The notes beneath the pieces are model-generated. The model was not told the origin of the DNA and did not search any database. It saw nothing but the letters and a program-made list of their open reading frames with translations. A program made the position numbers and the translations under genes. Below are positions 4,892 through 64,000 of a stretch of DNA of 64,000 bases, in pieces. The stretch lies in NCBI GenBank assembly GCA_000002435.2, contig CM018793.1; one strand, 5' to 3'. The stretch's first letter is position 1; every line of letters starts with the position of its first letter. The DNA comes from Giardia intestinalis (Eukaryota).

Positions 4892-5891
4892 ACTGCTTCA
4901 CCAGAAACATGCAGTAAAAGTCGTCGCCCATCGCTCTTGATTCATAGTCAATTGTATTTTGGCCAGCAAAGCAAATCCATGCCGAATAGTGCCCATTATC
5001 AACACAGAACGAAACCTCTGAGAGCGACTTCAAGGTTACCGATTTGTTCTCCACAACAACGCTTCCATGCTTCACATCCTGAAACTCTATTTTCTGTCCA
5101 TCTTCATCTTTTACTGTAGAGCCGTGATATGAACTCTTTGAATATTCTAATTCAGATTGGAAAACGAACAATCTGATTGGGATGCAGCCATTTCGTTCTA
5201 AGATAAAGCCAAAGCACTCCTTGGTAGAGTATATACCACTGCGAATGAAGGAGAAGTCAGATCGATATCTGGCGCTAACTTCTGCATACTTTTCTCTACA
5301 GCTCAGCTTATCGGCGCAAACAACTTGTAAGTCCGTTACATCTATCATAGCATCGTAGATCATGCAGTTCTGCTCCCCTCTATTGGCAACATCACTGGGA
5401 GTTTCTAAGAAATGGTTTATGTACACTGACAAAATTCGCTCATTCTTTCTGGTGATAAAGGACAGCCTCGGGTCATAGATAGACTCCAAGATTCCATCAC
5501 GGATCATCGCATCTCTCAAGGATTTGTAAAACAAAAATCCCACATAGTTTTCCGAAATGCAAAAGTAGTAGAGATATTCTGTCTTGGTGTGCATTACTGG
5601 TATCGACGAAGACACGGTACTGGCCAGAACAGTTGTCTGCTCGGTGACATGCATTGGCGACTTAGTAATGAAAGAGACGCGTCCTCCCTTCCAGACAGGC
5701 TTAGATACGTCTATGTCCACACCATTAGAAACCTGGACCATCTCTTGTGGGATGTCAAACAGAAAGACGTTTTGATAGCGCATGAGCTCTGTGTCCGTCA
5801 AATCAAACAATTTCCACTTAAATCTTAACAAGAGCAGAGCGGGTTTTCTCTCAAGCTTAATAGAAGGTGGAAAACTGGCCGCGCGCCACAC
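4878..5891 (-). CDS. hypothetical protein (337 aa), beta-rich, no recognised family
   Basis: Long ORF in otherwise tightly packed locus; convergent 3' end overlaps the 4124..4891 gene by 14 nt. Confidence 0.45.
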   Translation of the reverse strand: MWRAASFPPSIKLERKPALLLLRFKWKLFDLTDTELMRYQNVFLFDIPQEMVQVSNGVDIDVSKPVWKGGRVSFITKSPMHVTEQTTVLASTVSSSIPVMHTKTEYLYYFCISENYVGFLFYKSLRDAMIRDGILESIYDPRLSFITRKNERILSVYINHFLETPSDVANRGEQNCMIYDAMIDVTDLQVVCADKLSCREKYAEVSARYRSDFSFIRSGIYSTKECFGFILERNGCIPIRLFVFQSELEYSKSSYHGSTVKDEDGQKIEFQDVKHGSVVVENKSVTLKSLSEVSFCVDNGHYSAWICFAGQNTIDYESRAMGDDFYCMFLVKQSTTL

Positions 5892-44518: not shown

Positions 44519-46684
44519 ATGTTCGAAAAAATTCTCTTCACAAACTGCATATTGCAATTGGCCTGGATAATACAAACAGTAGCTGGGGCATGCACACCGG
44601 GAGAAACTGGTCCAACTAAGTGTAAAACCTGTGACGCTATCATAGGCACAGACAGCTATTGCAGCGAGTGTGACCAGGCGGGCGAAGGACCCATCAATGG
44701 AGTATGTACAAGCGAGCTAAGCGGCAATACTTGCGCTAATAAGATATGCACCCAGTGCGTAAAGAATTACTTCTTATATAAAGGAGGATGCTATAAATTT
44801 GCCGAATCACCGGGAAACATCATATGTGAAGACGCGATAGATGCAGCTGGCGGAACGGACGGAGTGTGTACCACGTGCAAGGCTGCTAACGGCTTCTTCA
44901 AGCATCCCGCCCCTGCAGAAACAAAACAGTCCTGCATTGCTTGTAATGAAACGGCCGGAGTCGTGGACAGTGACACCACGTACAAGGGTACATCCAACTG
45001 CCTGAAGTGTGACCCGCCCGCTGCTGCAATTGGAGCTAGAGCAGATAAAATGGCAGTGTGCACTCTTTGCGATCAGACTAAGTATCTCAAGGAAAGCGCA
45101 TGTGTCGAGAAAGCAGGGTGCGGCGCCAACATGTTTGGTAAGCCAAGTGTACAGGACGGGAATAAATGCATTGCGTGCGGGGATTCAAATGCTGGTATAG
45201 AGGGTTGCGCTGAGTGCACTGCGCCTGATGAACCAACTATTAAACCCACCTGTACAAAATGCACCGGTAACAACTACCTGAAAACCACAAGCGAAGGCAC
45301 GTCGTGCGTACAAAAGGAACAATGTAATGGGGCCTACTTTCCTAATGATAGTGTAGACGGTAAGAAACAGTGCGTTTCGTGTGGCGATGCAACTAATAAA
45401 GGCATAACCGACTGCACTGCATGCAATCTACTCAGCAGTCCGCTAGAAACAGTTCTTATTAAATGCTCTGCCTGCAGAAGTGGGAAGAAGCCTAATGAAG
45501 ATGGATCTGCGTGCGTCGATGCCCCAGGGCCCTCTCCAGAAGAATGCTCGATCGAAGGATGTCAGATATGTTCGGATGACAAAAAGACGTGTGATAAGTG
45601 CCAATCAAACAACTATCTCACTCCAACAAAACTCTGCATATCTGATTGCAAGAAGCTCGGAAACTATTATTTAGCTACCGAGCAAACAACTGGGAGCTGC
45701 AGGGAGTGCGCTATGGTTAATTGCAAAGAGTGTACTGAGAACGGTAAGTGTGGAATATGCAACGATGGCTTTTACCTCCTGAATGAGGAATGTAAGCCAT
45801 GTAATGATAGTTGCAAGACGTGCGAGGGTGGAGTGGAATCTGATAAGTGCACTAGCTGTAAGTCTGGAAGTGCTCTTATTTATGCAGGCAACGGAAATAC
45901 AGGCACATGTAGTCTTGGTTGCATACCCAAATCAAGTGCAGATCCTGGGTCTTGCAAGACATGTGATTTAGCTATTGATGGGACAAAGTATTGCTCAGTG
46001 TGTAATGTGGATAAAGAATACCCTCAAAACGGAGCTTGTGCTGGCATCAAGGCGCGTGCATCCTCATGCCAAGATGGAAATGTTAATAATGGTGTATGTA
46101 GTAAGTGCGAGACAGGGTTCTTCCTTATGAATGGGGGATGTTATGAAATAACCAAGTATCCCGGGAAAACAGTTTGCAGTAAGACAGCGGCTGATGGTAC
46201 ATGTGAGACACCCGCGACCGGCTTTAGTCTAAGTAGCAATACACTCAAAGCTTGCTTTGAAGGTTGTGCTAAGTGTGCTACTGGTGACGATTGTTCTGAA
46301 TGCATCAGCGGCTATGTATCAGGTAGTACCCCTAATAGTTGCGAAAAGTGTAGTACTGGTTGTGCTACATGCTACCCTACTGCCACGACTTGCACATCTT
46401 GTCTTGCTGGATACTATCAATCTGGACCTAAGTGCATTGCCTGTGATAAAGATGATTCTACTATCAAAGGTATTAGTAATTGCTTGAACTGCGCCCCTCC
46501 ATCGTCTGGTAGTGGCTCTGTCCTCTGTTATCTCATGAAAGGTGCCGACAACAACGGCGGGAGCACGAACAAGAGCGGCCTCAGCACAGGCGCCATAGCG
46601 GGGATCTCTGTCGCTGTCATCGTTGTTGTGGGGGGCCTCGTCGGCTTCCTCTGCTGGTGGTTCGTGTGCCGGGGCAAGGCGTGA
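44519..46684 (+). CDS. vsp: variant-specific surface protein (VSP)
   Basis: Signal peptide MFEKILFTNCILQLAWIIQTVAGA; ~40 CXXC motifs; GGCY motifs (YKGGCYKF, MNGGCYEI); C-terminal TM + invariant tail GAIAGISVAVIVVVGGLVGFLCWWFVCRGKA*; AGTAAAC poly(A) signal 8 nt after stop. Confidence 0.92.
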   Translation: MFEKILFTNCILQLAWIIQTVAGACTPGETGPTKCKTCDAIIGTDSYCSECDQAGEGPINGVCTSELSGNTCANKICTQCVKNYFLYKGGCYKFAESPGNIICEDAIDAAGGTDGVCTTCKAANGFFKHPAPAETKQSCIACNETAGVVDSDTTYKGTSNCLKCDPPAAAIGARADKMAVCTLCDQTKYLKESACVEKAGCGANMFGKPSVQDGNKCIACGDSNAGIEGCAECTAPDEPTIKPTCTKCTGNNYLKTTSEGTSCVQKEQCNGAYFPNDSVDGKKQCVSCGDATNKGITDCTACNLLSSPLETVLIKCSACRSGKKPNEDGSACVDAPGPSPEECSIEGCQICSDDKKTCDKCQSNNYLTPTKLCISDCKKLGNYYLATEQTTGSCRECAMVNCKECTENGKCGICNDGFYLLNEECKPCNDSCKTCEGGVESDKCTSCKSGSALIYAGNGNTGTCSLGCIPKSSADPGSCKTCDLAIDGTKYCSVCNVDKEYPQNGACAGIKARASSCQDGNVNNGVCSKCETGFFLMNGGCYEITKYPGKTVCSKTAADGTCETPATGFSLSSNTLKACFEGCAKCATGDDCSECISGYVSGSTPNSCEKCSTGCATCYPTATTCTSCLAGYYQSGPKCIACDKDDSTIKGISNCLNCAPPSSGSGSVLCYLMKGADNNGGSTNKSGLSTGAIAGISVAVIVVVGGLVGFLCWWFVCRGKA

Positions 46685-46691
46685 CTTAGGT

Positions 46692-46698
46692 AGTAAAC
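46692..46698 (+). promoter_or_regulatory. Giardia polyadenylation signal AGTAAAC (AGTRAAY) downstream of VSP stop
   Basis: tgacttaggtAGTAAACgcatc directly after TGA at 46682-46684. Confidence 0.7.
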
Positions 46699-46913
46699 GC
46701 ATCTCCTATTACATCTGCTCAGCAGCCTTGCGCAGAAGTCCAGGAATGAGTGGCCACGAAGCAGGGTCTCCTGACGTCTCGAGTAAACATACATAGTGCT
46801 CGCTCTGCGTGGAGCATCGAAAGCCCGGCGCGGTGTAGCCACGGCTGCTGGTTGGAGCGGAACGCGTTGGAGCTTTTTGAAAATGGCCCTACCCCGTGCC
46901 GGCCACGCGGCCT

Positions 46914-47534
46914 CTAGACCAGCGAGGCGAGGAGCTTCGTGATCCCCGGGCGCGCGCGGTAGCCATCAAATAGCTCGCGCAGCGGCGGAAACTGGTCCAC
47001 GAGCTCCGGACACTCTGCGTCCGCATAATACAGGACCTCCAGGACCGCGTAGTCCGAGTCGAGCGGCTCGAACGCCAGGCTCCGAAGGTTCAGCACGTCC
47101 CGGGTCAGGACGGTCAGCCCCGGAAGGATCCTGTTCTGTCGGTAGGCCGCGATGCACTCCGAGCGCGTCATCTCTGCCCCAGCGGCAAGGGCCTCTGCCA
47201 CGGCTTTGGGCTCCTTCCAGGCGGCGGCAAGGAGATCCTCACAGAAGAGCACCAGGGCCCGCGCAGCAGCCTGCACCTGCAATGACGTGCTGTACCGCCC
47301 CAGGCTCGCCCCCAGGTACTCCAGGATGACCATGCCCCCGGCCACCCGCGCCGCGCTGTCTTCCCACACGGGGAGCGTGCACGATGGTGCACCCACCTTC
47401 GCCGCGGCCACCTGCTCGGCGCTCGCCAAGGGCGCCCACTCGTACCGTATCTCCAGGTCTGCGAGCAGGAGCCGGCACTTCAACGCGGTGCCCCGGGCGT
47501 CGTAGTACGTGAGTCTCGGCGGAACTACGTCCAT
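46914..47534 (-). CDS. glutathione S-transferase-fold protein (cytosolic GST sigma/mu-like architecture), extremely GC3-rich
   Basis: MDVVPPRLTYYDARGTALKCRLLLADLEIRYEW...PVWEDSAARVAGGMVILEYLG parallels GST N-domain (KLTYFNxRGRAE.IR...I.YE...P.LEVDG..L.QS.AI.RYL); C-terminal alpha-helical domain; GC3 >80%; ATG at 47534 preceded by agaagtaaaATG. Confidence 0.5.
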   Translation of the reverse strand: MDVVPPRLTYYDARGTALKCRLLLADLEIRYEWAPLASAEQVAAAKVGAPSCTLPVWEDSAARVAGGMVILEYLGASLGRYSTSLQVQAAARALVLFCEDLLAAAWKEPKAVAEALAAGAEMTRSECIAAYRQNRILPGLTVLTRDVLNLRSLAFEPLDSDYAVLEVLYYADAECPELVDQFPPLRELFDGYRARPGITKLLASLV

Positions 47535-50500
47535 TTTACTTCTCTGGTGGGCTCGTATCAACTGTGCCAAGGTGCGAGGCAACCCCTGGCACGCGGGCCA
47601 CCTCTCCCGGGGGGAGATCCTTGGGTTTCAGTTTACTATCTGAGCGCCAGCTTCATGTAGCTGCTATACGTTGCTAACTGCTAGTACCTGCATAGATAGT
47701 GGTGGGGTTGGGGTGGACACTAGGCTGGCGCGATTTATGGAGGTCGTTTGCCTCCTGGGTCGTTTGAACCTCGAGGGTCCGGAATCTTCCAGTTGGACCC
47801 TCTAAATCATATCACGAACCATCAGACGGAGAGACCGACCCACAGCTGGTCAAAAGGGTCGGCAGTGATCGCAGCCACTGTGTCACTCGAGGACCTGTTG
47901 GGGCCCGGGACTCTGCAGAAGCTCCTCACTAGTTCGGTCTTGAAGTCCACGCTCTTGTGTGCCAAGATCCACGTCTTGTTATGCGTGCCGTGCTTTCCAG
48001 TATAATCGTGCTTATACTTGTCGCCCTCTCTAATGCAGTTTCTAATGCTACCATGACGGGACTTCTCGCTATTTTGTGCTTCATGTTTGTCAACACGGCC
48101 TAGGTGCCCTGCTGTCTGTTCTGCAGCCGCTTCATCTCCTGCTAGAAGGAAGCGAGAGCCCTTGGGTATCCGGTAAGACTTCTGAGTAAACGAGGTAATG
48201 CTTCGATGAGTGTACGTTAGTCGCATCGGCACAGAGCGCGTACTAACCAGACGAAGTCACATGTCTGCTAACTTCTATATAATATTCTAAAGCTATCCGG
48301 TCTCTGGGTGGCACCGCCAGGTGTGTAGTGGGGCCCGTGGCCATTAAGACCCAGAAGGGCCTCTTCTCCTACTTGGCTCCGGAGTCAGTCCCAGTAGAGC
48401 ATTGTTATGAGGCTGGTGTGCAGAGAGACACCGGATAGTTTGTACCGGTACACACCCCTTGTCCCCAGACGGCACTCACCAGGAGTAGGCATTCGTAGAA
48501 CCGCAGCATCGTGGGCTTGTGCACCGCTCGCTGCCCATGCACGTGTAGCTGCAGGCACACAAGCCAGTCGAGAGGCGCTCACTTGCCGGAGCTCCCTAAT
48601 CACTGTTCAGAACACCGAACCGACGCCCCTGCCAGCGCGCCGCTCTTTGTAAGATACCCCAGAGGAACTCCAGTCGTCGCTCAACAGCGTGCATACCCGA
48701 GGCCTCTGTCTAGGGAACACTGCGCCCGCCTCTGCATGTCTTGAAGTGCAGAAAAGAAGGTCTACCGATAGAGCCCTACACCATGTCCAGACATCCTATG
48801 TTTTCAGAATCTTCGCGCAAGGATAAGAGGTAGGATGGGCAGAACTTGGCTGGCCTCGCGTCATGCAGATAGCGATGCTATGCGTACCACGTGATTGCAT
48901 GTCACCGCACAAAGACAAGAGCCTGTATCAGCAGCCGACGGCATTTTACCAGTAGACCGAGGGACATTCCCGCACTGTACTCATTCTCCTGTGTAACTTT
49001 CAAGCATGTTCGGTCGTGCTGGACGCTGCCTTTAGTCATATCTTGCTGAATAGCCAACGCAGTTGGCAGTGACCCCAAATATAGTGCGCCTTGCCTAATT
49101 CAGACTCCGGGATAGGCGTGTGGAAGACAAGCAGACGCATAGTATGGAGCACAGAGAGCCGTAGAGACAGTTCTAAGCGCATCATAGAGAAGCAGAGTGG
49201 GCTGTGGCCTCATGTGGTTAGAGGTATATGATCGTATAGTCTTCTGTTCAGGACACATATCTTGGGAGCCACTGCGTTGAGTCCTCTAGACCATCACTTG
49301 GAGGGCGAACCGTCGTGCAATGCAGGGCTGCATGCCAAAAGACACATGTCTGTCAGGAGAAGGTCGAAGGACGGATCCACAGGCATTGCATGACTTGCTG
49401 GCATTCTTCTGTACAGAGCGTAATGCCTCGTGACAGGGAAGTCGTAGTTTTGTCACCAACCCCAATAGGGCTAAGGCATGATCAACGCAGAACTATGCAT
49501 TCCTGCTGTGGTGTCCACAGAAGTGCTTGTCGAAGAGGATGTTCGCGCTCTCTGAGGGTACACACGAGGAGGGGCTGTGTAATGCGAAGAGCCGGGCACA
49601 GACCTTAAAGGGCTCAGGCTCGTGGTCATAAAAAGTCGCTCCTGCCCGTCTCCGCGGGTACTGCAGTCCTCGATGGTGGATCATCGCATCTTCTCCTTAA
49701 CCGGCACATTGGCAGCCTGGTCTCTGGCGCAGGCACGCAGAGCATCGGGCCAGAAGCGCCGACTCGTTACCTCCTTTGCTCAGCCAAGTCCCGTGTTGGC
49801 CACAGAACACGCGTGTCTGCCCCCAGTGCGTAGCCGCTGAATCCTCAACAGAGGGACGTGTTCAGAAGTCTACGCTAACGCAGCCCACTGCAAGCAAAGT
49901 TCATCTGTCTCTCAGAGAAGAGGCGGCTGGGCCGTGTGTTGCGCATCAAGAGGCCTTTGTGAAGGGCGCCCGCACGTCTCGTCACACATGTGCGTCCGAG
50001 TGACAAGTAGCAGCCGGCGATACGGCCGCCCTCGGCTTCGCAGACACAGCGGGTGTGCTTACTGGTGTTCAAAGCAGTATGCCGTTGATCGTGGCATGCC
50101 TTTTCTCCAGGAGGGCTGGACGCCACTCGAATTGTGACTGTGTGCCATAGACGGGTGCTCTCCTTGTTACTCTGTAACACTCGTGCGCATCGGGACCGGC
50201 GATTCGCATCTGTGATCCAGACAGGAGCAGCGTCTTGTACTTCCGAGTAAGATGCAGCCGGCCCGCGAGCCTACGTGCCGATCTATAGTCTATAACAAGC
50301 AAGCGGCAACCACTTGGCGTGCTACTCACGTGGACATTGCAGACTCTGCATCTGAATCGAGAGGCTTGACAGCGTACCGATTCCACGCTTGGCCGTCATA
50401 GGAGCCGCTTCCTTCTGCTCAGTAGTAAGCAGTCCGGCTTTACCGGTAGGAATGATCGATATAGCTGAGTGGCCCGAATAGACCCTAGTGACACCACGGC

Positions 50501-51526
50501 TTTCTGTTTATATTAAACGCCTTCGCTGTACTGGGGTCTCAGTGAGAAGACGAGCACAGATCCAGGCATGCAAGCCTTTAGAGATGCGTACTCCACGCAA
50601 TTCCGGTGTGCTCGCCTGACGAGTCCTACTGCTCTAGCCGGCATACCGTTAGATCCTTCTGTACAGATTGAGCGAGCAGATATTAGCATACGGGTCACGT
50701 TAAGTACCTATGTTCAAGGCAGCTGCTGTTGAACGGGCACACCCAGAGCCACTGTCACGTAAGATGCCAGCAAGATTCGCGGCCGCAGATCACACTGTAA
50801 TCTGGCGACTGATTTGGTCATGTCGCTTCTTTATCGGCTGGAAACTCGACTGGAAGCGACAGAGAGCACGTCGGGAGAACTCGATGGGAGAGGACTGGCA
50901 GGGCTTCCTGCGCCACGGGGGGAGCCACCGCAGGAGGACGCGCAGGCACGCACGCCAGGCCACAGTAGACACGCGGACGCCCCTGTAGACTGGGCCGGCA
51001 GCAGGCGTCCGCAGAATCCGCGCCAGAGCCAGCTGCTCAAAAAACTGGGCAGCCTCTGGTCGTGTGCAGGCCTTGCAGAGCGCTGCGGCTCCCGACACTC
51101 GGCGACCCCTCTCAGAGCGGAAGACCCCGCGGGCCGCAGGCAGCAGCTCGTCGTCGGCGATGTCCCGAACGAGGGGGACGGCCCCAGCCTGCCTGCCTCC
51201 GCAGAGCTCTGGGTGTCTGCAGACAAACCGGGGCTGCGCAGGGCGCGGCTCTCCCTGGCGGCCGAGGGCGGGGATCCCCGGCAATACCAAAAAACTCCGA
51301 TCAATACATCAACCCCGGCGCCGCCGTGTGCAAAGCAGTCTGTTCTGTGTGGCGACCTAAGCCAACTCGTACTGCGGCGATGGCCCGGATGAGGGCGCCC
51401 TGCTCGCCCGACGGACCGGGGCAGGCAGGCAACAAACACCCGCTAAAACTTTTGCGCAAGGCCTGTACATATTTAATTTCACATTATTCGTTGGTCTGTT
51501 TTTAGTTTTATCGCCGCTTCTATTGG

Positions 51527-52117
51527 ATGGGCTCTGGGGCAATGACGGCGGAGACGCGCGCCTCCGTTCTGCTCGAGCTCGCGAAGCAGGTCGTCGCTGC
51601 CCGGCGGCTGGGGGAGACGGCCGAGAGCCTCGCGCGGCGGCCGCTGCTCCTCCACCGGCACGTGCTCCGGACGGCCATCGACTGGAAGAAGATCGCCCGC
51701 GCCCTGTCCGAGGACCGGAGCAGGATCTACCACTGGTACCGCGAGACGCACTCGCGGAGCATCCTCAACGTGAAGATGACCGGCGAGGACCGCAGGGCCA
51801 TCAAGGCGATGATCATCGCCGGGGTCAGGGACCGGAGCATCCTGGGCCCGGACTTCTACCGCAGGGTCCACGAGCGCTTCGGGGCGAAGTATCCGCGCCA
51901 GGAGCTGCGGATGACGTACAACAACGCGCTCCGCACCCAGGACGTCCGCGCCGCCCTGGAGGAGCATGGGGTTCTTCCTGGGCCCGGCACCCTCTCGCTC
52001 CAGACGGGCCAGGATCTTCTCGGGCCGCCCACTTCCTTCGCATGCGTGCCATGCTTCCCCCCTGCGGGCTACGGGGGCGTGCCTGGGTGCGCTGATACAT
52101 ACCCCAGTAAGGGCTGA
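51527..52117 (+). CDS. candidate GC-rich gene encoding 196-aa protein with two Myb/SANT-like helix-turn-helix units
   Basis: Only ORF in the GC-rich desert with protein-like composition (IDWKKIARALSEDRSRIYHWYRETH; RRAIKAMIIAGVRDRSILGPDFYRRVHERFG); ATG preceded by a sharply AT-rich initiator patch (tacatatttaatttcacattattcgttggtctgtttttagttttatcgccgcttctattggATG) embedded in ~68% GC DNA. Confidence 0.3.
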   Translation: MGSGAMTAETRASVLLELAKQVVAARRLGETAESLARRPLLLHRHVLRTAIDWKKIARALSEDRSRIYHWYRETHSRSILNVKMTGEDRRAIKAMIIAGVRDRSILGPDFYRRVHERFGAKYPRQELRMTYNNALRTQDVRAALEEHGVLPGPGTLSLQTGQDLLGPPTSFACVPCFPPAGYGGVPGCADTYPSKG

Positions 52118-53407
52118 AGACTGGAGAGCCCGGCTTGCCTGGTGGTCGTCGAGGGGCATCGACGAGTGGTCGGTAGAAACGGCTAATAGTTGAAGTCCTG
52201 GTCAGTGGCGAGACAGTCATTCCTAGAGCGTGTAGCATGCTCGGCCACTTCATAACGCAGGGCCCACCAGACGCAAGCTGTGACGGCCTGGATGTCGCGC
52301 AATCCGTGGCCTGTGCATCGTTGCAGGGGCCATACACAGCAGGTGGAGGCAGGGTTTCCTGTGTGCTCAGACGACTCGACCATCGCAGTTCTGGGTCGAC
52401 GATCCACTAGATATTCCTGTCTAACAACGGGCGGCCGAACGCCCTCTGGGCTGTGAGCTAACACTAACGTGCAGTTGGTCGGCCACCAGATCCATCTTGG
52501 TTAGCCCTCTGCCTACATGCGCCAACACGCCGAGGAGCTACAGGGCAGTCGTTTGCTGTCTTGACAGGTATACTATTGCCTCTATATCTGCACCCTGGAT
52601 GCGGCCACCATAGCACAGTTGCATCTCTGATCATCCTGTGCACACCTTCTGGCACGAGCAGGTGCGCCGGAAGGGATGCACTGCCCACCGCCGAGAAATG
52701 GATGAACTCCCTTACCCAGGAGCCGGCTGACCACTAGCCGTGCCCAGCAAACCCCAATAAGCAGGCCTGCTGAGCCAACCCATCCAAGAAGCTGTGTATC
52801 CGGAAGAGCTTCGCGTCGAATGGCTCCTTGATTAAAGAAGCTGGCATCCAGCGCGACATGACGACTGCTCGCCTGGTGCTGTGCTACCTGCTGGGCGGAA
52901 ACACAGACGCCCTAAGCTCCGTGTGAGCTTGTGCTCAAAGCGTCCTTCACCGGCACGGGATTCCAGGAACTAGGCGTAGATAGGAAGAGCATTCCCCGCT
53001 AGTGCCACGAAGTACCGGTACGCTACCTGGATACACCGATGGCAGCGAAGAGTACGAGAAGGTCCCAGGGCCTCATCGAGCGGGTCTGCTCCTAGCAGGC
53101 CCAAGTGGACGCTCTCTCCAGCAGTGTACAAGAAGCCTGGGAGGGAGTGCTCAGGCTGGAGCTGAGGCGTTGCTGGTACAGGCTGTCCTTACTGAGTGCA
53201 TCCCTCAGCGTCCAATAAGTGGAAAAGTGACCGGAGCTAGGTGTGCCTGCTTCTTCTCTGCCGCCTGCATGTTGTTGCATCTCTAGCTCTTCCTCATTTG
53301 TCGAGCGACTGCTCCTTCTGGCCTCTTGCTGGTCCTCGTTCGTCGTGTAGTCTCTTTTGGAGCTGCTCCCTGGAGGTCGGGCTGACCAGCAACATGGAGG
53401 AGCCTCA

Positions 53408-56400
53408 TTCTTAGCTTCACACTCCACAACTGGCCCAGCGACATGTTGACCATTTTACAAGCAGTTCTGGGTCGCCCAGTCTGGGGCCGGCTGCTGTGCA
53501 TTCTCTGCTTGACTGCCAGGGTCCGCGTCTGGCCCAGACACTAGATGGACAGGAGGCACGGACAAACGCCATTTGCTTGTTGCTTTCATGATCCACGAAG
53601 CTGCTGTCTTTATGTGAGTCTCGACCCAGGTCGGTCTCCGTTGTAGGTGCAACAGTCTTGCGCATGCAATCTGGAGGATCTACGTTAGCGGGTCGAGCCG
53701 AGCAATCCTTGTTAGCGCCTGCCATCCGACGTCTCTGTTGTTGAACTGGCCTGTAGAAGTCCGCTATAGGCCCTCAGGCTCTTTGTCTGTGAGGTTCTGT
53801 GAGGTCCTCTATACCGGTCAGGCCTGTCCGCGTACTCTGTTGATGGGCGAGCTGGTGCATGCAGTCACAGCCCCTGCGCCACCTTCCATTCGGCACTCGG
53901 CGTGTCCACCTGCTTCCGGCCTGCCCTCGCAGAGCACGCTAAGCGCCCACCTATAGCGCATGTCGGTGGAGACTCCTCGGGAGCAATTTGCGGGGGTCTC
54001 GATGAGGTGGCCGACGCCCAGTGAACGACCCCAAGCCACCCTTTAGTGTCTGCGCTGTCGCTCCACGAGAGTGCGTAGTGGGATGCGGCCCGGAGTCCTC
54101 ATGTGCGGGGGCTGACAAGGACTGACAGCCACAGTCAACGGCAGAAAGTTCGGCACCCCGTGTTCCCACGACGTCTCCGATCGCAGTACTGGCGGGGCCT
54201 GACGGCGCTTCTCTTCTTAATTCGGAACGAGTTAAGGAGTTTCCGCCGTAGGATGGCCGAACTGGCGGCCGGCAGGGCTGTGCGATGTGTTAGAGATTGT
54301 TAGAGATTCATACTGTATATTGTGCAGTGGCTAACGTGTATGGGTGTCCCACCGAAGACCCGGCGAAGGATGGCACCGGAGGTGAGACAGGATGACTCCT
54401 GGTGGAGGGGACCACGGTGCTGGCTTGCCTGCAGATGCCGTGGCCAAAATCTCAGCCCGTCCAGGAGTTTAACGGAGGTCATGCGGCCGGACACCGAGGC
54501 CTACCGGAGAGCCGCATCGCCCCTGCACGAGCCAGCAAGCACTGCCTTCGACCCGACCACAGTTGAGAGCGCCCATGTCCGTGGATGCCGTCGGTCAGGT
54601 CCCTGAAGACCACCCTGCTCACAGCCCCAGGGATCCCTCTGCAGACTCTGATTTCTATATCCCTGGGGTAGATGTTTGCGGATAGCGGCACAGGGCTCAG
54701 CAAAACCGCCAGAAGATCCACAGCACACTGTCATTAACTATAAACGTCTTGCGGTATTCATTCCACAATTGAGCCGGTCGTACTGACACAGGAACTGGAG
54801 TCAGGCACTTCTAGGGTGCAACTACAGGACTGTGGAGGAGCTTGCCTTCACACAAAGAAGATCACGTGGACCAGATGTGCCCGGACTGAGAAGCGCCCGC
54901 TTTACCGAGTAATGGTCGCTAATCTATGCACACAGATCATGTTTGGCGGCAAGCTCCCCTGTAGCTCATGCATCACTGTGAATCACTGCCTAGAGGCTTG
55001 TGTTGGAGATGCCGCAAGACACTAATGGCTGACAGGTGTGACTAGCCGTTCTTCCAGTGGTCGTCTCTGGATGCACCGAGTACCTAAGGCGATAGATCAG
55101 CGCTGCAGGCCTTGACTGTCACGGGCCTTGTGCATAGCTGATCAAATGCCCAACACACTCTGCCCGAGGGTGCCCAAACCCCACGGTGCTGTAGTCGGGC
55201 TGCTAAGGTGCGAGAGGTGGGGCACAGAGGCGCCTATCAGAGCCAAGGATCTATGTGTCACCTGCCTCTGGGTGGAGCAACTACGCCATAGTAGGGGGTG
55301 TTTGTTGCCATACAGAAGTGGGTACGATGAGATACGAAGGCACAGTCCTGCCGCAGAATCCGACGGGTGCTCGGAAACGGGTAACCCGGTAACCTCGTAG
55401 AATAGCAACGTCGAAGCTATAGAGTAAGCAGATGTAATAGGAGATGCGTTTACTACCTAAGTCACGCCTTGCCCCGGCACACGAACCACCAGCAGAGGAA
55501 GCCGACGAGGCCCCCCACAACAACGATGACAGCGACAGAGATCCCCGCTATGGCGCCTGTGCTGAGGCCGCTCTTGTTCGTGCTCCCGCCGTTGTTGTCA
55601 CCAGTACTATCACCCATCTCGAGGCACATGAACGCACTGGTGGATGACACCGTGCACTGTCTGCACCCAGCGAGCCCCTCAGAGCACTTCTTGCACGGTC
55701 CACTATCGCTACTCTCCTTATAATATCCACGAGCACATACTTTGCATGTGGCAGCCGCGGTTTCGCAGGTGTAGCAGCTTTCATGACATTTCGTGCAAGC
55801 TTTGACGTTACTGAATGCTATGTATCCATCCATACATTCTGTACATTCATTTGCAGTATTACACGTCTTACAGCCTTCAGGGCATATTACAAGGTTGTTT
55901 TCATTATTTAAGTTAAACCCTGGCATAGGTCTATCACAAGTCCCACCAGTTGTCGCCACTGTTGCACATACACTGTGCGCAGGGTACTTCTCATCTTCGT
56001 AGCACCCTCCGTTCATCCGAAGGAGCCCATTAGCACACGAATTGCAGACACCGGTTCCTTGAGAGGTGCATGTCGCAGCCCGCCCACTTGGTTTCGGTGC
56101 ACAGACACCGTTCTGGGGATACTCATTGTCCTGGCTACATGCAGAGCAGTACCTTGTGCCTTTAACAATTAGATCACATGCTTTACAGTTCCCAGTGGCT
56201 TTATCTGTATTGACAACACATTCAGGAGCGCATTTACCCTTCTGCCCATTTGCATAGTCAAGGATGGTTCCAGGTTTGCACTCAGTACAATCATTAGCAG
56301 TGTTTCCCTTACAATTCTTGCAACTACCGTCACACTTCTGGCATATCCCAGCATCGTCAGCATAGAATCCATCTTCGCAGAAACCGCATTTGCCGTTCGG

Positions 56401-57945
56401 ATCACACACAACGCAATTCTTGACCTCGCACTTCTTACAGATCCCTTTGCCGCCCTCTGTGCTGCTGTAGTAGCCTAGAATATATTCGCAATATTTTATG
56501 CACATCCCTGTCGGAGTGAGATAGTTCTTGTCCTTGCACTCCTCACATGTCTTCTTGTCTGCAGAACATTTCTGGCAGTTCTCGACGGGGCAGTCAGAGG
56601 GCGGAGGTTCTGGGGCATCGACACATGTAGATCCCTCGTCATTGGGTGTCTTTCCGCCGTTACACGTAGTGCACTTGATAGCAGACTCTCCAGCTAATCC
56701 GCGAGCTTCCTTGAGAGTACATGTCTTACAGTCAATTATGCCACCGGCGTCGGTGTCTCCACACGGGACGCATTTTTTGATACCCTTAGCTGTGACAGGG
56801 AAGTGGTCTGTCTTACACTGCGTCTTTTCAACGCAACTAGAAGGCGTTACAGCTAATAAATAGTATTCGCCCTCACACGTAGTGCATGTGGCAGAGCCGG
56901 GGCCTTCAGGAGGAGTACACACTTTGCAGTTCGGAACACCTCTGAAACCATCAATCGTATCTGCCTCATTGCAGGCAATGCAAGATTGGTGGGTGTTATC
57001 GCTAGCACCCATATTTTTGAAGAACCCGTTAGCGTCATTGCATGTTTCACAGAGTCCTGCACTACTACTCGCACTTTTGCAAACGGTTTGTCCAGGAGGT
57101 GCTGCTTGTACATAGCATCCACCTTTGTGGAGGAAGTATCCAGCCTTAGTACACTTTCCACATGTGGTTGAATGCTCATCGAGAGCTCCATCAACTTTTT
57201 CACATCCGGCAGTTGTGATAAGCCCATCACTTTTATCCTTACATTCCCCATTAATGGGCACCTCTCCAGGTTTAGCACAGTCAGTGCAAACTCTATCTCC
57301 ACCTATGCTAATGCATTTACCCTGTTTACACTGTCCTGTTTGCGGGTCACTGCTAGCCTCTGTGCATGTTTTTGCTGCCCGTGCTACTTGCAGAATCAAA
57401 ATTCCAAAGAGGATTTTCTCGAACATTGCCAGCAGTCCGTAGAGCATCCAGTAGAGAGAGCCTGCACACCTAATATCAGTGTGCTGTGTCGCTAGACATC
57501 GCTTATGGGGGCGGTCCAGAGGTCTTACATGAGCTGCCCCAACTTTCTGATCAGTTTGGAGACGATGGCTGGTTCTAGACAGCAAACAGGGACTCCTCTT
57601 TATTAGCATATCTAAAACCTGGCACCTTCCCCGGCCGCTCACCCTGGGATTTAGCTCACTTGCCCACTTGCGTCGTCCACCAATGGCGCCTCTCCTTGGT
57701 CTTCCTTCGTGGTGGGTGAAGCTCCGGTCGCTGTCTTTTTTAGATGCTCCCGTCTGTCAGGGGCTGCCATCGGGCTCTCCACTGGCCGCCCCTCGGTGTC
57801 CGTCTGGCTGTGGCCCGGGCAGCGCTCTACAGTCGCGGTCACTTGGGTCTCAGCGGGCCAGCTGGTGGGGAGGCTGGGGCATGGGGCGGTGAGGCTGGAG
57901 GGTGGCGGTGTCGTCTGTGCCCCTGGTCCGGTGGGCCATTGGGGT
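53408..57945. repeat. left arm of large inverted repeat (>=4.5 kb; outer end truncated by mirror of window edge) containing VSP gene plus flanks
   Basis: Mirror-image identical ORF translations about axis 58704 (53417..53725(-) = 63683..63991(+); 55462..57642(-) = 59766..61946(+)); arms begin to diverge near 57900-57945 (few SNPs: G/R, V/A, P/R codon changes). Confidence 0.9.
55462..57426 (-). CDS. vsp: variant-specific surface protein (VSP), inverted duplicate of 59982..61946
   Basis: Identical 726-aa extended ORF to the arm-2 copy; signal MFEKILFGILILQVARA (alt. upstream ATG at 57447), CXXC repeats, GGCY, C-terminal ...GFLCWWFVCRGKA*; AGTAAAC signal on minus strand at 55448-55454. Confidence 0.85.
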   Translation of the reverse strand: MFEKILFGILILQVARAAKTCTEASSDPQTGQCKQGKCISIGGDRVCTDCAKPGEVPINGECKDKSDGLITTAGCEKVDGALDEHSTTCGKCTKAGYFLHKGGCYVQAAPPGQTVCKSASSSAGLCETCNDANGFFKNMGASDNTHQSCIACNEADTIDGFRGVPNCKVCTPPEGPGSATCTTCEGEYYLLAVTPSSCVEKTQCKTDHFPVTAKGIKKCVPCGDTDAGGIIDCKTCTLKEARGLAGESAIKCTTCNGGKTPNDEGSTCVDAPEPPPSDCPVENCQKCSADKKTCEECKDKNYLTPTGMCIKYCEYILGYYSSTEGGKGICKKCEVKNCVVCDPNGKCGFCEDGFYADDAGICQKCDGSCKNCKGNTANDCTECKPGTILDYANGQKGKCAPECVVNTDKATGNCKACDLIVKGTRYCSACSQDNEYPQNGVCAPKPSGRAATCTSQGTGVCNSCANGLLRMNGGCYEDEKYPAHSVCATVATTGGTCDRPMPGFNLNNENNLVICPEGCKTCNTANECTECMDGYIAFSNVKACTKCHESCYTCETAAATCKVCARGYYKESSDSGPCKKCSEGLAGCRQCTVSSTSAFMCLEMGDSTGDNNGGSTNKSGLSTGAIAGISVAVIVVVGGLVGFLCWWFVCRGKA

Positions 57946-59462
57946 GGTAGGTGATCCCCTCTCTGTTTGCCAAGGTGGTTGTGTCTGATCTCCAACCGTC
58001 GTTGTACTCCCGAGACAAAGGCACCGACGATCGTGTCGTGTCCCCCTGACTGAGCGCCTCCTCTCAGCCCCTGCATGTCTCGGGCAGTACTGCTTCTCTG
58101 TTTGACTAGTACGTGAGGGTCAAAGCAGGCCATCCCAGGCCCTCCTGATGCTCTGTGCGGGTCTGCTGAGCCCCCTGGCATGCCCTGTCTGGTGCCTCGA
58201 CGGTAGTTCACCTCGGGCCAGCAGGGGCATGGATGACCCTGTGGATGGGATGGGTTCTCTCAGGCCTCTAGTGTGATGACCCAGAAGACTGACACGGTGG
58301 GGCACCAGTGACTGCACTGTCCCCGTGGTCAGCTGTGCTGCCCCTGGTGGGTCCTCGTTGTAGAGCGCTGTGTGTTGTTCATAGGCAGAGGTGAGCCTCC
58401 TTGGTCTCAAGATGCTCTACCATGCAGAGAGGAGCACGCTGAGGGTCACCCATACCTCACACCTGCTGTGTCCTCGGGGAGTTCCCGGTGTGATCCACTA
58501 GGACCTTGACCCCTCTCGTGGCTCTGATGACTCGCCTCAGGGAGAGTCGGGGCACCCTATACTGAGGGGTGTGCACCCTCCTGCATGAGCTGGGACCCAC
58601 TGCACTGCCCCCAAGGAGGTCTGCTATGAGAGGCAGTGAATGATTGACAGCCCCTCAGAGTGCGGTGGAGGGTGCTCGTGGTCGTCTCTTGTGATCGGGC
58701 ATCACTCTGATGGTCGGCTCCTGTGCCTGCGTGGTGCTCAGAGGTCACCTGTCTGCCTCGTAGCCTGCTGGACAGCCGGGCCTCTTGTGGCGTCCGAAGG
58801 TCTCCTCACTCCTCTGGTCGCTGTCCCCTCGGGTCATAGGTGGAGGCCAGCGAGTCTTCGGAGTCTGGTGCCTGCCTGGGTGTCATGGAGAGGCTGGCAG
58901 CTATCAAGGCTCTGCCACTGCTCGCCTGCCTGGAGTGTGCCTCCCTTGGGCCTGCTCTGCTGTGCTGCGTGAGTCCTCTGGCTCCTATCAGACCTCTGAT
59001 TGTGAGAGTGACTCCACCTGGCCTTCTGATGCCCCTGTGGATGAGCATAGCAATGTGTCTGGTTGAGGATCTCTGGTGCCCGTGGCTGTCACTGCCTCTC
59101 GGGTGCTTGGGTAGTTGCCTGGGGCTCTCGTATGGGGGCACAGTCTGTTCGTGTGTGGATGGTCCTCCTGGACTCATGTCCATCTGTGCACACTGTCACT
59201 CAGCCTCGAGAGCAGACCAGTGCAGTCACCAGGGTTGCTGTCAGAGGGAGTCGTCTGCCACTACCATCGTTCGAGCAGACTCTACAGCTCAGGCTGGCTG
59301 CTGTGCACCCTCATGGCAGGGCTGCTTGACTCCCCTTGGTCATCCTCTCTGTCCCGGTGCACACGGCTCCTGAGGGTTGTCTGGGTGGAGGCACTCACAG
59401 ACCACGAGCACACAGAGGGATGAGTCACAGATGGACAGCCCCCAGTCACCACAACTGCAATC

Positions 59463-62400
59463 ACCCCAGTCCACCGAGAGGTCAGGGGCACAGACGACAC
59501 CGCCACCCTCCAGCCTCACCGCCCCATGCCCCAGCCTCCCCACCAGCTGGCCCGCTGAGACCCAAGTGACCGCGACTGTAGAGCGCTGCCCGGGCCACAG
59601 CCAGACGGACACCGAGGGGCGGCCAGCGGAGAGCCCGATGGCAGCCCCTGACAGACGGGAGCATCTAAAAAAGACAGCGACCCGAGCTTCACCCACCACG
59701 AAGGAAGACCAAGGAGAGGCGCCATTGGTGGACGACGCAAGTGGGCAAGTGAGCTAAATCCCAGGGTGAGCGGCCGGGGAAGGTGCCAGGTTTTAGATAT
59801 GCTAATAAAGAGGAGTCCCTGTTTGCTGTCTAGAACCAGCCATCGTCTCCAAACTGATCAGAAAGTTGGGGCAGCTCATGTAAGACCTCTGGACCGCCCC
59901 CATAAGCGATGTCTAGCGACACAGCACACTGATATTAGGTGTGCAGGCTCTCTCTACTGGATGCTCTACGGACTGCTGGCAATGTTCGAGAAAATCCTCT
60001 TTGGAATTTTGATTCTGCAAGTAGCACGGGCAGCAAAAACATGCACAGAGGCTAGCAGTGACCCGCAAACAGGACAGTGTAAACAGGGTAAATGCATTAG
60101 CATAGGTGGAGATAGAGTTTGCACTGACTGTGCTAAACCTGGAGAGGTGCCCATTAATGGGGAATGTAAGGATAAAAGTGATGGGCTTATCACAACTGCC
60201 GGATGTGAAAAAGTTGATGGAGCTCTCGATGAGCATTCAACCACATGTGGAAAGTGTACTAAGGCTGGATACTTCCTCCACAAAGGTGGATGCTATGTAC
60301 AAGCAGCACCTCCTGGACAAACCGTTTGCAAAAGTGCGAGTAGTAGTGCAGGACTCTGTGAAACATGCAATGACGCTAACGGGTTCTTCAAAAATATGGG
60401 TGCTAGCGATAACACCCACCAATCTTGCATTGCCTGCAATGAGGCAGATACGATTGATGGTTTCAGAGGTGTTCCGAACTGCAAAGTGTGTACTCCTCCT
60501 GAAGGCCCCGGCTCTGCCACATGCACTACGTGTGAGGGCGAATACTATTTATTAGCTGTAACGCCTTCTAGTTGCGTTGAAAAGACGCAGTGTAAGACAG
60601 ACCACTTCCCTGTCACAGCTAAGGGTATCAAAAAATGCGTCCCGTGTGGAGACACCGACGCCGGTGGCATAATTGACTGTAAGACATGTACTCTCAAGGA
60701 AGCTCGCGGATTAGCTGGAGAGTCTGCTATCAAGTGCACTACGTGTAACGGCGGAAAGACACCCAATGACGAGGGATCTACATGTGTCGATGCCCCAGAA
60801 CCTCCGCCCTCTGACTGCCCCGTCGAGAACTGCCAGAAATGTTCTGCAGACAAGAAGACATGTGAGGAGTGCAAGGACAAGAACTATCTCACTCCGACAG
60901 GGATGTGCATAAAATATTGCGAATATATTCTAGGCTACTACAGCAGCACAGAGGGCGGCAAAGGGATCTGTAAGAAGTGCGAGGTCAAGAATTGCGTTGT
61001 GTGTGATCCGAACGGCAAATGCGGTTTCTGCGAAGATGGATTCTATGCTGACGATGCTGGGATATGCCAGAAGTGTGACGGTAGTTGCAAGAATTGTAAG
61101 GGAAACACTGCTAATGATTGTACTGAGTGCAAACCTGGAACCATCCTTGACTATGCAAATGGGCAGAAGGGTAAATGCGCTCCTGAATGTGTTGTCAATA
61201 CAGATAAAGCCACTGGGAACTGTAAAGCATGTGATCTAATTGTTAAAGGCACAAGGTACTGCTCTGCATGTAGCCAGGACAATGAGTATCCCCAGAACGG
61301 TGTCTGTGCACCGAAACCAAGTGGGCGGGCTGCGACATGCACCTCTCAAGGAACCGGTGTCTGCAATTCGTGTGCTAATGGGCTCCTTCGGATGAACGGA
61401 GGGTGCTACGAAGATGAGAAGTACCCTGCGCACAGTGTATGTGCAACAGTGGCGACAACTGGTGGGACTTGTGATAGACCTATGCCAGGGTTTAACTTAA
61501 ATAATGAAAACAACCTTGTAATATGCCCTGAAGGCTGTAAGACGTGTAATACTGCAAATGAATGTACAGAATGTATGGATGGATACATAGCATTCAGTAA
61601 CGTCAAAGCTTGCACGAAATGTCATGAAAGCTGCTACACCTGCGAAACCGCGGCTGCCACATGCAAAGTATGTGCTCGTGGATATTATAAGGAGAGTAGC
61701 GATAGTGGACCGTGCAAGAAGTGCTCTGAGGGGCTCGCTGGGTGCAGACAGTGCACGGTGTCATCCACCAGTGCGTTCATGTGCCTCGAGATGGGTGATA
61801 GTACTGGTGACAACAACGGCGGGAGCACGAACAAGAGCGGCCTCAGCACAGGCGCCATAGCGGGGATCTCTGTCGCTGTCATCGTTGTTGTGGGGGGCCT
61901 CGTCGGCTTCCTCTGCTGGTGGTTCGTGTGCCGGGGCAAGGCGTGACTTAGGTAGTAAACGCATCTCCTATTACATCTGCTTACTCTATAGCTTCGACGT
62001 TGCTATTCTACGAGGTTACCGGGTTACCCGTTTCCGAGCACCCGTCGGATTCTGCGGCAGGACTGTGCCTTCGTATCTCATCGTACCCACTTCTGTATGG
62101 CAACAAACACCCCCTACTATGGCGTAGTTGCTCCACCCAGAGGCAGGTGACACATAGATCCTTGGCTCTGATAGGCGCCTCTGTGCCCCACCTCTCGCAC
62201 CTTAGCAGCCCGACTACAGCACCGTGGGGTTTGGGCACCCTCGGGCAGAGTGTGTTGGGCATTTGATCAGCTATGCACAAGGCCCGTGACAGTCAAGGCC
62301 TGCAGCGCTGATCTATCGCCTTAGGTACTCGGTGCATCCAGAGACGACCACTGGAAGAACGGCTAGTCACACCTGTCAGCCATTAGTGTCTTGCGGCATC

Positions 62401-64000
62401 TCCAACACAAGCCTCTAGGCAGTGATTCACAGTGATGCATGAGCTACAGGGGAGCTTGCCGCCAAACATGATCTGTGTGCATAGATTAGCGACCATTACT
62501 CGGTAAAGCGGGCGCTTCTCAGTCCGGGCACATCTGGTCCACGTGATCTTCTTTGTGTGAAGGCAAGCTCCTCCACAGTCCTGTAGTTGCACCCTAGAAG
62601 TGCCTGACTCCAGTTCCTGTGTCAGTACGACCGGCTCAATTGTGGAATGAATACCGCAAGACGTTTATAGTTAATGACAGTGTGCTGTGGATCTTCTGGC
62701 GGTTTTGCTGAGCCCTGTGCCGCTATCCGCAAACATCTACCCCAGGGATATAGAAATCAGAGTCTGCAGAGGGATCCCTGGGGCTGTGAGCAGGGTGGTC
62801 TTCAGGGACCTGACCGACGGCATCCACGGACATGGGCGCTCTCAACTGTGGTCGGGTCGAAGGCAGTGCTTGCTGGCTCGTGCAGGGGCGATGCGGCTCT
62901 CCGGTAGGCCTCGGTGTCCGGCCGCATGACCTCCGTTAAACTCCTGGACGGGCTGAGATTTTGGCCACGGCATCTGCAGGCAAGCCAGCACCGTGGTCCC
63001 CTCCACCAGGAGTCATCCTGTCTCACCTCCGGTGCCATCCTTCGCCGGGTCTTCGGTGGGACACCCATACACGTTAGCCACTGCACAATATACAGTATGA
63101 ATCTCTAACAATCTCTAACACATCGCACAGCCCTGCCGGCCGCCAGTTCGGCCATCCTACGGCGGAAACTCCTTAACTCGTTCCGAATTAAGAAGAGAAG
63201 CGCCGTCAGGCCCCGCCAGTACTGCGATCGGAGACGTCGTGGGAACACGGGGTGCCGAACTTTCTGCCGTTGACTGTGGCTGTCAGTCCTTGTCAGCCCC
63301 CGCACATGAGGACTCCGGGCCGCATCCCACTACGCACTCTCGTGGAGCGACAGCGCAGACACTAAAGGGTGGCTTGGGGTCGTTCACTGGGCGTCGGCCA
63401 CCTCATCGAGACCCCCGCAAATTGCTCCCGAGGAGTCTCCACCGACATGCGCTATAGGTGGGCGCTTAGCGTGCTCTGCGAGGGCAGGCCGGAAGCAGGT
63501 GGACACGCCGAGTGCCGAATGGAAGGTGGCGCAGGGGCTGTGACTGCATGCACCAGCTCGCCCATCAACAGAGTACGCGGACAGGCCTGACCGGTATAGA
63601 GGACCTCACAGAACCTCACAGACAAAGAGCCTGAGGGCCTATAGCGGACTTCTACAGGCCAGTTCAACAACAGAGACGTCGGATGGCAGGCGCTAACAAG
63701 GATTGCTCGGCTCGACCCGCTAACGTAGATCCTCCAGATTGCATGCGCAAGACTGTTGCACCTACAACGGAGACCGACCTGGGTCGAGACTCACATAAAG
63801 ACAGCAGCTTCGTGGATCATGAAAGCAACAAGCAAATGGCGTTTGTCCGTGCCTCCTGTCCATCTAGTGTCTGGGCCAGACGCGGACCCTGGCAGTCAAG
63901 CAGAGAATGCACAGCAGCCGGCCCCAGACTGGGCGACCCAGAACTGCTTGTAAAATGGTCAACATGTCGCTGGGCCAGTTGTGGAGTGTGAAGCTAAGAA
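59463..64000. repeat. right arm of large inverted repeat (runs to window end)
   Basis: Reverse complement of 53408..57945; see left arm. Confidence 0.9.
59982..61946 (+). CDS. vsp: variant-specific surface protein (VSP), head-to-head with its inverted duplicate
   Basis: Start chosen by homology to first VSP (MFEKILF...; alternative ATG at 59961 MLYGLLAMFEKILF; track start 59766 is a non-ATG extension); CXXC/GGCY motifs; CRGKA tail; AGTAAAC at 61954-61960. Confidence 0.85.
   Translation: MFEKILFGILILQVARAAKTCTEASSDPQTGQCKQGKCISIGGDRVCTDCAKPGEVPINGECKDKSDGLITTAGCEKVDGALDEHSTTCGKCTKAGYFLHKGGCYVQAAPPGQTVCKSASSSAGLCETCNDANGFFKNMGASDNTHQSCIACNEADTIDGFRGVPNCKVCTPPEGPGSATCTTCEGEYYLLAVTPSSCVEKTQCKTDHFPVTAKGIKKCVPCGDTDAGGIIDCKTCTLKEARGLAGESAIKCTTCNGGKTPNDEGSTCVDAPEPPPSDCPVENCQKCSADKKTCEECKDKNYLTPTGMCIKYCEYILGYYSSTEGGKGICKKCEVKNCVVCDPNGKCGFCEDGFYADDAGICQKCDGSCKNCKGNTANDCTECKPGTILDYANGQKGKCAPECVVNTDKATGNCKACDLIVKGTRYCSACSQDNEYPQNGVCAPKPSGRAATCTSQGTGVCNSCANGLLRMNGGCYEDEKYPAHSVCATVATTGGTCDRPMPGFNLNNENNLVICPEGCKTCNTANECTECMDGYIAFSNVKACTKCHESCYTCETAAATCKVCARGYYKESSDSGPCKKCSEGLAGCRQCTVSSTSAFMCLEMGDSTGDNNGGSTNKSGLSTGAIAGISVAVIVVVGGLVGFLCWWFVCRGKA

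Follow-up and report, generated by a model that had tools for sequence, protein, structure and literature searches.

Giardia intestinalis is a tetraploid, binucleate protist. In this work we analysed a 64,000-nucleotide stretch of its genome (contig CM018793.1 of the GenBank assembly GCA_000002435.2), referred to below as the window, and focused on its last part, from position 53408 to position 64000, where two genes for variant-specific surface proteins (VSPs) lie head to head in the arms of a large inverted repeat. The left copy (GL50803_00137722, vsp26.2) occupies positions 55462 to 57426 on the minus strand and the right copy (GL50803_00137723, vsp26.1) positions 59982 to 61946 on the plus strand, and each encodes 654 amino acids when read from the ATG within the initiator element (Inr). 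The coding sequences of the two copies are identical. In a Pfam search the right copy, and hence the identical left copy, matched PF03302 with an E-value of 8.4e-120 and a score of 400.7 bits, the cut-off being 31.4. The protein has 27 CXXC motifs, a cysteine content of 11.9% and two GGCY motifs at residues 102 and 473. Its N-terminus is hydrophobic (MFEKILFGILILQVARA), and its C-terminus, GGLVGFLCWWFVCRGKA followed by the stop codon, comprises the conserved transmembrane segment ending in CRGKA. The start codon lies within the Inr sequence CAATGTT (59980-59986 on the plus strand, mirrored at 57422-57428 on the minus strand), which fits the PyAATGTT consensus. The stop codon is overlapped by ACTTAGGTAGTAAAC (61946-61960 on the plus strand, mirrored at 55448-55462 on the minus strand), which we take, from the VSP consensus, to be the extended polyadenylation signal of VSP genes.

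A repeat search of the window reported only one large inverted pair, 53408-57946 and 59462-64000, with 1515 nucleotides (nt) between its members. By blastn, the portion of the left arm that can be paired inside the window (53408-57925) and the right arm as cut by the window edge (59483-64000) are reverse complements of each other over 4518 nt, with 99.956% identity. A base-by-base comparison, in which the mirrored coordinates add up to 117408, showed no mismatch over the 4317 nt from 53408 to 57724. The only two arm-to-arm point differences in the 4518 nt lie between 57725 and 57781 of the left arm (57725/59683 and 57781/59627), that is, inside the innermost 201 nt. From 57926 onwards the identity drops abruptly to the random level, and past the arm ends only some 20-30 nt of ragged, indel-containing similarity are found. 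A chance origin of the palindrome is excluded, since a random 64-kb sequence is expected to yield inverted matches of only about 16 nt. Position 53408 is not an arm boundary and only reflects the end of the window at 64000. Each arm contains the VSP gene, 499 nt of promoter-proximal 5' flank, a 5S rRNA gene and at least 2054 nt of identical 3' flank. These results bear out what an earlier note, made from the sequence of the window, had described: the mirror sum of 117408, two identical VSP genes on opposite strands with their 5' ends facing each other, and point differences confined to the neighbourhood of the inner edge. The same note had placed a unique centre at 57946-59462; the uniqueness stands, whereas the limits have to be moved, the strict spacer being 57926-59482 (1557 nt).

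The 5S rRNA genes, which the earlier note had not recorded, were found with the Rfam family RF00001. The left one is located at 54145-54264 on the minus strand and the right one at 63144-63263 on the plus strand, both scoring 88.3 bits (gathering threshold 38) over model positions 1-120. In each arm 1197 nt separate the VSP stop codon from the first base of the 5S gene, and the two genes have the same orientation. Ten 5S genes have been reported in the genome of isolate WB (Xu et al. 2020, PMC7000408); two of the ten therefore lie inside the palindrome, as each arm carries one. A contig from another isolate (L004) contains a 5S copy that is 100% identical to these, although the surrounding 200-nt bins range from 91 to 100%. 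In addition, about 24 nt separate the right 5S gene from a perfect 10-nt tandem duplication upstream of it (AATCTCTAAC twice, 63100-63120).

The locus was then compared with the published record. The VSP of the window is 100% identical to four protein accessions of G. intestinalis WB, encoded on a 4.02-Mb contig, two of which (XP_001709467 and XP_001709469) belong to the 2007 Sanger annotation and two (KAE8304974 and KAE8304975) to the 2020 PacBio annotation. In the supplement of Adam et al. 2010 (BMC Genomics 11:424), vsp26.1 and vsp26.2 are given as GL50803_137723 and GL50803_137722 (HHIPa and HHIPb) on chromosome 5, with 715 amino acids, the Inr CAATGTT and 27 CXXC motifs, and Table 5 of that paper sets their inter-ORF (open reading frame) distance at 2190. 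Table 2 of Xu et al. 2020 (Sci Data 7:38, PMC7000408) lists 137722 and 137723 on chromosome 5 in the orientation <- ->, with 661 amino acids, a distance of 2513 bp and no gene in between. Both distances are reproduced in the window by the corresponding gene models: starts at 59799 (the old start of the right copy) and 57609, which give 715 amino acids, leave 2189-2190 nt, and starts at 59961 (the annotated start) and 57447, which give 661 amino acids, leave exactly 2513 nt. Between the Inr ATGs the gap is 2555 nt. No gene is annotated between the two VSPs, whose accession numbers are adjacent.

These alternative starts raise the question of the correct gene model. Rodriguez-Walker et al. 2022 (bioRxiv) named this pair as mis-annotated, assigned the true start to the second methionine, which bears the Inr, and reported that the shorter proteins carry a predicted signal peptide. 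The VSP start should be the ATG at 59982 (mirror 57426), resulting in 654 amino acids, because the Inr CAATGTT, the onset at 59981 of the homology to a VSP of P15 (assemblage E) and the 2022 preprint all point there. The earlier note had chosen the same ATG as the published correction.

Reports of identical inverted VSP pairs go back to 1991, and genome-wide catalogues appeared in 2010, 2020 and 2022, the last of which re-confirmed 20 duplicated pairs (Rodriguez-Walker et al. 2022). As Adam 2010, Xu 2020 and Rodriguez-Walker 2022 list both the class and the gene pair, the class and the specific locus are already known; the earlier note had recognised neither. In the structural-variant supplements of Pollo 2020 the gene numbers of the pair were not found. 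We read the region as the central part of an inverted segmental duplication (palindrome) on chromosome 5 of G. intestinalis WB that bears the catalogued pair GL50803_137722/137723, and put the probability of this reading at roughly 0.85.

It was important to consider whether a single VSP locus might have been falsely mirrored by chimeric long reads or by a mis-join. Duplications near 20 kb were at the limit of read resolution (Xu 2020, PMC7000408), duplicated VSPs were formerly questioned as artefacts of the GL2.0 assembly (according to the 2022 bioRxiv work), and the right arm past the VSP is represented by accessions of the 2020 era only. The pair is nevertheless not an artefact, as the earlier note had maintained, because both copies occur in two independent assemblies made with different technologies, Sanger sequencing in 2007 and PacBio in 2020. 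The 1.56-kb unique spacer and the inner edges bearing single-nucleotide polymorphisms (SNPs) are unlike the spacer-less perfect palindromes that result from missing-adapter chimeras. Moreover, Adam 2010 placed the 5' divergence of the pair 169 nt above the old start codon, only a few nt from the mismatch at 59627. Another member of the class, the vsp1267 pair, had been reported separately (cited in Adam 2010), the 2022 re-confirmation covered 20 VSP pairs, and identical VSP pairs are present in G. muris as well. False mirroring is thus hardly credible.

The extension of the arms past position 64000 was assessed from the protein accessions of the 2020 annotation and their gene order, obtained by exact look-ups of the ORFs on the left side. 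Going from left to right, the accessions are KAE8304970 (a single-copy VSP, 44519-46684), KAE8304971 (a GST-like protein, 46914-47534, minus strand), KAE8304972 (the hypothetical GL50803_0060223, 50820-51392, plus strand), KAE8304973 (the hypothetical GL50803_00113864, 51527-52117, plus strand), KAE8304974 (VSP 137722, 55462-57447) and KAE8304975 (VSP 137723, 59961-61946). They are followed beyond the window by KAE8304976 (d113864, identical to KAE8304973), KAE8304977 (d60223, identical to KAE8304972) and KAE8304978 (a second GST-like protein). A single residue out of 206 distinguishes the two GST-like copies, KAE8304971 and KAE8304978; another chromosome carries a third copy, which has about 96% identity and clusters with that of isolate DH. 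The mirrored duplicate genes beyond 64000 confirm, at the level of the annotation, the earlier proposal that the repeat continues past the right window edge. Positions 46914-53407, with the GST-like gene, GL50803_0060223 and GL50803_00113864, would form the outer part of the left arm, so that at this level the arm, measured from 57925, appears to reach 46914 or further (about 11 kb) and the whole palindrome to extend over about 24 kb. Since no paralogue with 90% identity or more exists in WB for the VSP at 44519-46684, the left arm has to end somewhere between 46685 and 46914. In the searchable literature we found no discussion of the size of this palindrome or of its 5S genes. Xu et al. 2020 (PMC7000408) mention in general terms multigene duplications of up to 20 kb.

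The spacer (57926-59482) is unique and asymmetric. The plus strand of the centre contains 15% A, 30% C, 31% G and 24% T; it is A-poor with 60% GC, and 'GT-rich', as the earlier note had called it, is a weak description of a sequence with 55% G+T. Its two halves showed no residual palindromy (local alignment score of 24, compared with 21 +/- 2 for a shuffled null). None of the 14 six-frame fragments in or overlapping the spacer matched a Pfam family or a reverse transcriptase, and a Pfam search (E <= 1) of 20 six-frame fragments from the spacer and the 3' flank for transposon or reverse-transcriptase remnants gave chance-level matches only. Rfam matched nothing but the 5S genes of the arms, and hence no structured RNA within the spacer; a tRNA search was likewise negative.

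The translation of a spacer ORF had homologues only in contigs of the ENA database. Two of these contigs, L007 (positions 479-1855) and L008 (positions 3-1438), align with the window from 58382/58413 to 59770 at about 84% identity, without any break across the inner right junction at 59482/59483. They delimit a conserved element of about 1.4 kb (58382-59770, plus strand), which covers the right two-thirds of the spacer and part of the right 5' flank. The amino-acid identity of the ORFs called in the spacer (56-71%) is no higher than the 84% nucleotide identity predicts, and the element is therefore treated as non-coding. Both contigs appear to come from Giardia of another assemblage, since the VSP 3' ends that they carry are only about 80% identical to those of WB. 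In both of them the element abuts the tail of a VSP gene and not its head, and L007 contains direct repeats of the end of the element that are 70-80% identical and 1573 nt apart. On account of this position and of these repeats, the element seems, from sequence comparison, to behave as a recurrent VSP-associated intergenic element. The direct repeats of L007 also hint at a tandem or mobile repeat family.

The alignment further suggests how the palindrome may have arisen. The right arm and the spacer would be the native contiguous sequence, to which an inverted copy would have been joined at 57925/57926, the putative duplication breakpoint. The left junction is taken as the novel joint because L007 and L008 are collinear with the window across the right junction at 59482/59483. 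For the same reason we dropped the opposite proposal, based on AT skew, that the spacer continues the upstream region of the left arm.

Once the arms had formed, gene conversion between them within the chromosome may have preserved their identity; it would be less effective at the edges of homology. The differences are indeed concentrated at the homology borders: both mismatches are innermost, the outermost gene (GST-like) differs by one residue, and at least 4.3 kb of the interior is perfect. If conversion fails near homology borders, as we propose, differences at the inner edge and in the outer GST-like gene are accounted for. Under uniform placement, the probability that both mismatches fall into the innermost 201 of 4518 nt is about 0.002. 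The concerted evolution invoked by the earlier note is in this respect plausible, its edge-localised differences having been observed, while the conversion step is deduced from them.

The alternative is a very recent inverted duplication without ongoing homogenisation, in which the arms have simply had no time to diverge. Only 2 differences in 4518 nt would be consistent with it, and Adam 2010 preferred to explain the identical pairs by duplications and transpositions of recent date. In addition, the best match to the paired VSP in P15 is a single gene in a different context (59% identical), so that the age of the palindrome gains no support from this side; the P15 orthologue of the neighbouring VSP lies at a contig end with different neighbours, and synteny is thus uninformative on this point. 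On the other hand, a recent event does not predict mismatches placed as non-uniformly as these, followed by 20-30 nt of indel-rich similarity, nor a difference in the outermost gene, which is what conversion tracts failing at the borders would leave. Data from a second sample also bear on the age. There, the block corresponding to 50717-54185 is represented by one contig (L005, 3.9% diverged from WB) covered 62.7x, compared with 25.4x for a single-copy contig of 39 kb from the same sample. This suggests that a lineage differing from WB by about 3.5% has two or more (about 2.5) collapsed, near-identical copies of the arm block, which argues against a very recent origin. We therefore consider recent duplication possible but clearly the less probable explanation, and infer that the identity of the arms is best explained by gene conversion. 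The literature was also searched for palindromes and gene conversion involving Giardia VSP pairs, and nothing specific to this locus came up.

Several points weigh against the reading of the locus as a member of the known class, shaped by inverted duplication and conversion. Within the class it is atypical, as its identical 3' flank measures at least 2054 nt (about 8.5 kb by annotation), versus the 141-203 nt reported for other head-to-head pairs. The parental arm is chosen from two short contigs, apparently of another assemblage, that place the element next to the tail of a VSP gene. The coverage ratio in the metagenome assembly could be due to the collapse of other paralogues or to a mixture of strains, gene conversion is deduced from a small number of events (two mismatches and one amino-acid difference), and the extension past 64000 is drawn from accessions and gene order rather than from read sequence.

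The mirror symmetry also raises the possibility of a regulatory hairpin locus, at which a transcript through both arms would yield long double-stranded RNA, be processed by Dicer and silence or switch VSP expression. Co-transcribed arms would indeed give a perfect stem of at least 4.3 kb, and Giardia has Dicer, Argonaute and VSP-directed small RNAs according to PMC2583053 and PMC3937270. However, the genes are head to head and are transcribed away from the spacer; their mRNAs have the same sequence and are not complementary to each other. Nor does the spacer hold a structured RNA family recognised by Rfam, and the presence of housekeeping genes (5S rRNA and GST-like) in the same architecture argues for a plain segmental duplication. 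We regard such a hairpin locus as highly improbable. The antisense read-through put forward in the earlier note fails for the same geometric reason: with divergent orientation, read-through does not produce antisense of the partner, an argument that would apply to tail-to-tail pairs instead. Its suggested relevance for antigenic switching, which leaned on this arrangement, is likewise unsupported, and the formation of a DNA hairpin is unlikely given the loop of 1.56 kb. The DNA of long inverted repeats extrudes or folds back inefficiently when the loop measures about 1.5 kb. The kilobase spacer may keep the palindrome mechanically stable or tolerable, and spacers measure 2.2-12 kb in all Giardia VSP pairs (Xu 2020, PMC7000408).

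Since the arms carry 5S rRNA and GST-like housekeeping genes, the locus is best regarded as a plain segmental inverted duplication and not as a switching device. In practice it provides one antigen gene and one 5S gene in two copies each, together with a recombination substrate. As to why identical VSP pairs persist, Adam et al. 2010 called this 'an interesting, but cryptic observation'. One could also imagine that the pair differs from an ordinary small duplication of a VSP cassette, that the two 5S genes, transcribed by Pol III and located about 1.2 kb downstream of the VSP copies, act as TFIIIC-type boundary elements which bracket and insulate a two-copy VSP expression domain within the palindrome of about 24 kb, and that the 1.4-kb A-poor spacer element is a functional, VSP-linked regulatory element or non-coding RNA; we consider this conjecture very unlikely.

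Two further observations concern the 3' ends of the VSP genes. The contig L004 is 96.6% identical to window positions 50637-55281 and, over its positions 4630-4897, switches abruptly to unrelated sequence at window position 55281, 180 nt 3' of the VSP stop codon. This distance is within the 141-203 nt published for the 3' divergence points of the other head-to-head pairs; for vsp26.1/26.2 the corresponding value was left blank by Adam 2010. Judged by this alignment, a VSP gene with short flanks may be a replaceable cassette in a conserved backbone. The second observation relates to the neighbouring VSP (44519-46684), which is otherwise only about 39% identical to the paired VSPs. Its 3' end (46547-46719) is 100% identical over 173 nt to 55427-55599 and 61809-61981, comprising the last 138 nt of coding sequence and 35 nt of 3' untranslated region. 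The shared segment constitutes a second perfect inverted repeat, with its members 8.7 kb apart, at the putative outer border of the left arm. Such sharing suggests that VSP 3' ends are homogenised locally, and the repeat may serve as a substrate for recombination.

Outside the VSPs, the stretch of about 8 kb from 47600 to 55460, with 58% GC, lies beside VSPs and contains only two short annotated hypothetical genes. One of these, GL50803_00113864, is a member of a family confined to Giardia, in which the other proteins (e.g. GL50803_0061066, 68% identical, and the copies in P15, GS-B and DH) have about 270-320 amino acids; with 196 amino acids it covers about three quarters of the family members and may be truncated. 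The 2007 ORFs 113865 and 116271 on the opposite strand over this gene are probably spurious products of GC-rich, stop-poor sequence. We also examined the ORF at 47822-48226 (minus strand), labelled 'tRNA-dihydrouridine synthase 3, partial' in DH, and rejected this assignment: compared with the Dus gene at 42536-44203 it gave an E-value of 0.083, and it had no Pfam match. The label is probably an annotation artefact or carry-over.

As a discovery the pair matters little, for it was already listed by gene number. What our analysis adds are a 5S gene in either arm, an arm length of about 11 kb as deduced from the annotation, a spacer devoid of a reverse-transcriptase remnant and the left junction as the putative breakpoint. 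For curators of the Giardia genome and for studies of VSP evolution, the larger multigene palindrome, the putative breakpoint at the left junction and the start ATG at 59982 may be useful.

Human Y-chromosome palindromes P1-P8 are ampliconic and undergo arm-to-arm gene conversion. The Giardia palindrome resembles them in its kilobase arms with more than 99.9% identity, its unique spacer, its duplicated genes and the concentration of divergence at the borders. It differs from them in that its arms are about 100-fold smaller and that conversion is deduced from three differences and not from a comparison across species.

Closer parallels are found within Giardia. The identical inverted pairs of WB (Adam 2010, Xu 2020, Rodriguez-Walker 2022) form the same class, in which this very locus, vsp26.1/26.2 on chromosome 5, is included. 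Like the other members it has identical ORFs in inverted orientation, and the non-coding inter-ORF DNA of 2-4 kb that is typical of the class is matched by 2189-2555 nt, depending on the gene model, with no protein family in the spacer. The flanks of class members diverge 139-729 nt from the coding sequence, and on the 5' side this locus agrees, its identity ending abruptly 499 nt above the ATG at 59982; on the 3' side it does not, since the identity persists for at least 2054 nt up to the window edge. It differs from the other head-to-head pairs of WB in that each arm holds, besides the VSP, three protein genes and one gene for 5S rRNA, and in lacking both the reverse-transcriptase remnant found in the spacer of 4 of the 7 head-to-head pairs and the NEK kinase found in 1. 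The first Giardia VSP pair to be described, vsp1267 (reference 17 of Adam 2010), likewise consists of identical inverted ORFs, about 3 kb apart, but these are arranged tail to tail with convergent transcription, whereas the present pair is head to head and divergent. In G. muris, Xu et al. 2020 (Microb Genom 6:mgen000402) reported seven identical VSP pairs, of which two are arranged head to head and the other five tail to tail. Their spacers contain coding remnants of NEK, ankyrin-repeat or zinc-finger genes and have no sequence relationship to the locus studied here, and the seven pairs indicate that the architecture of inverted VSP pairs recurs across the genus.

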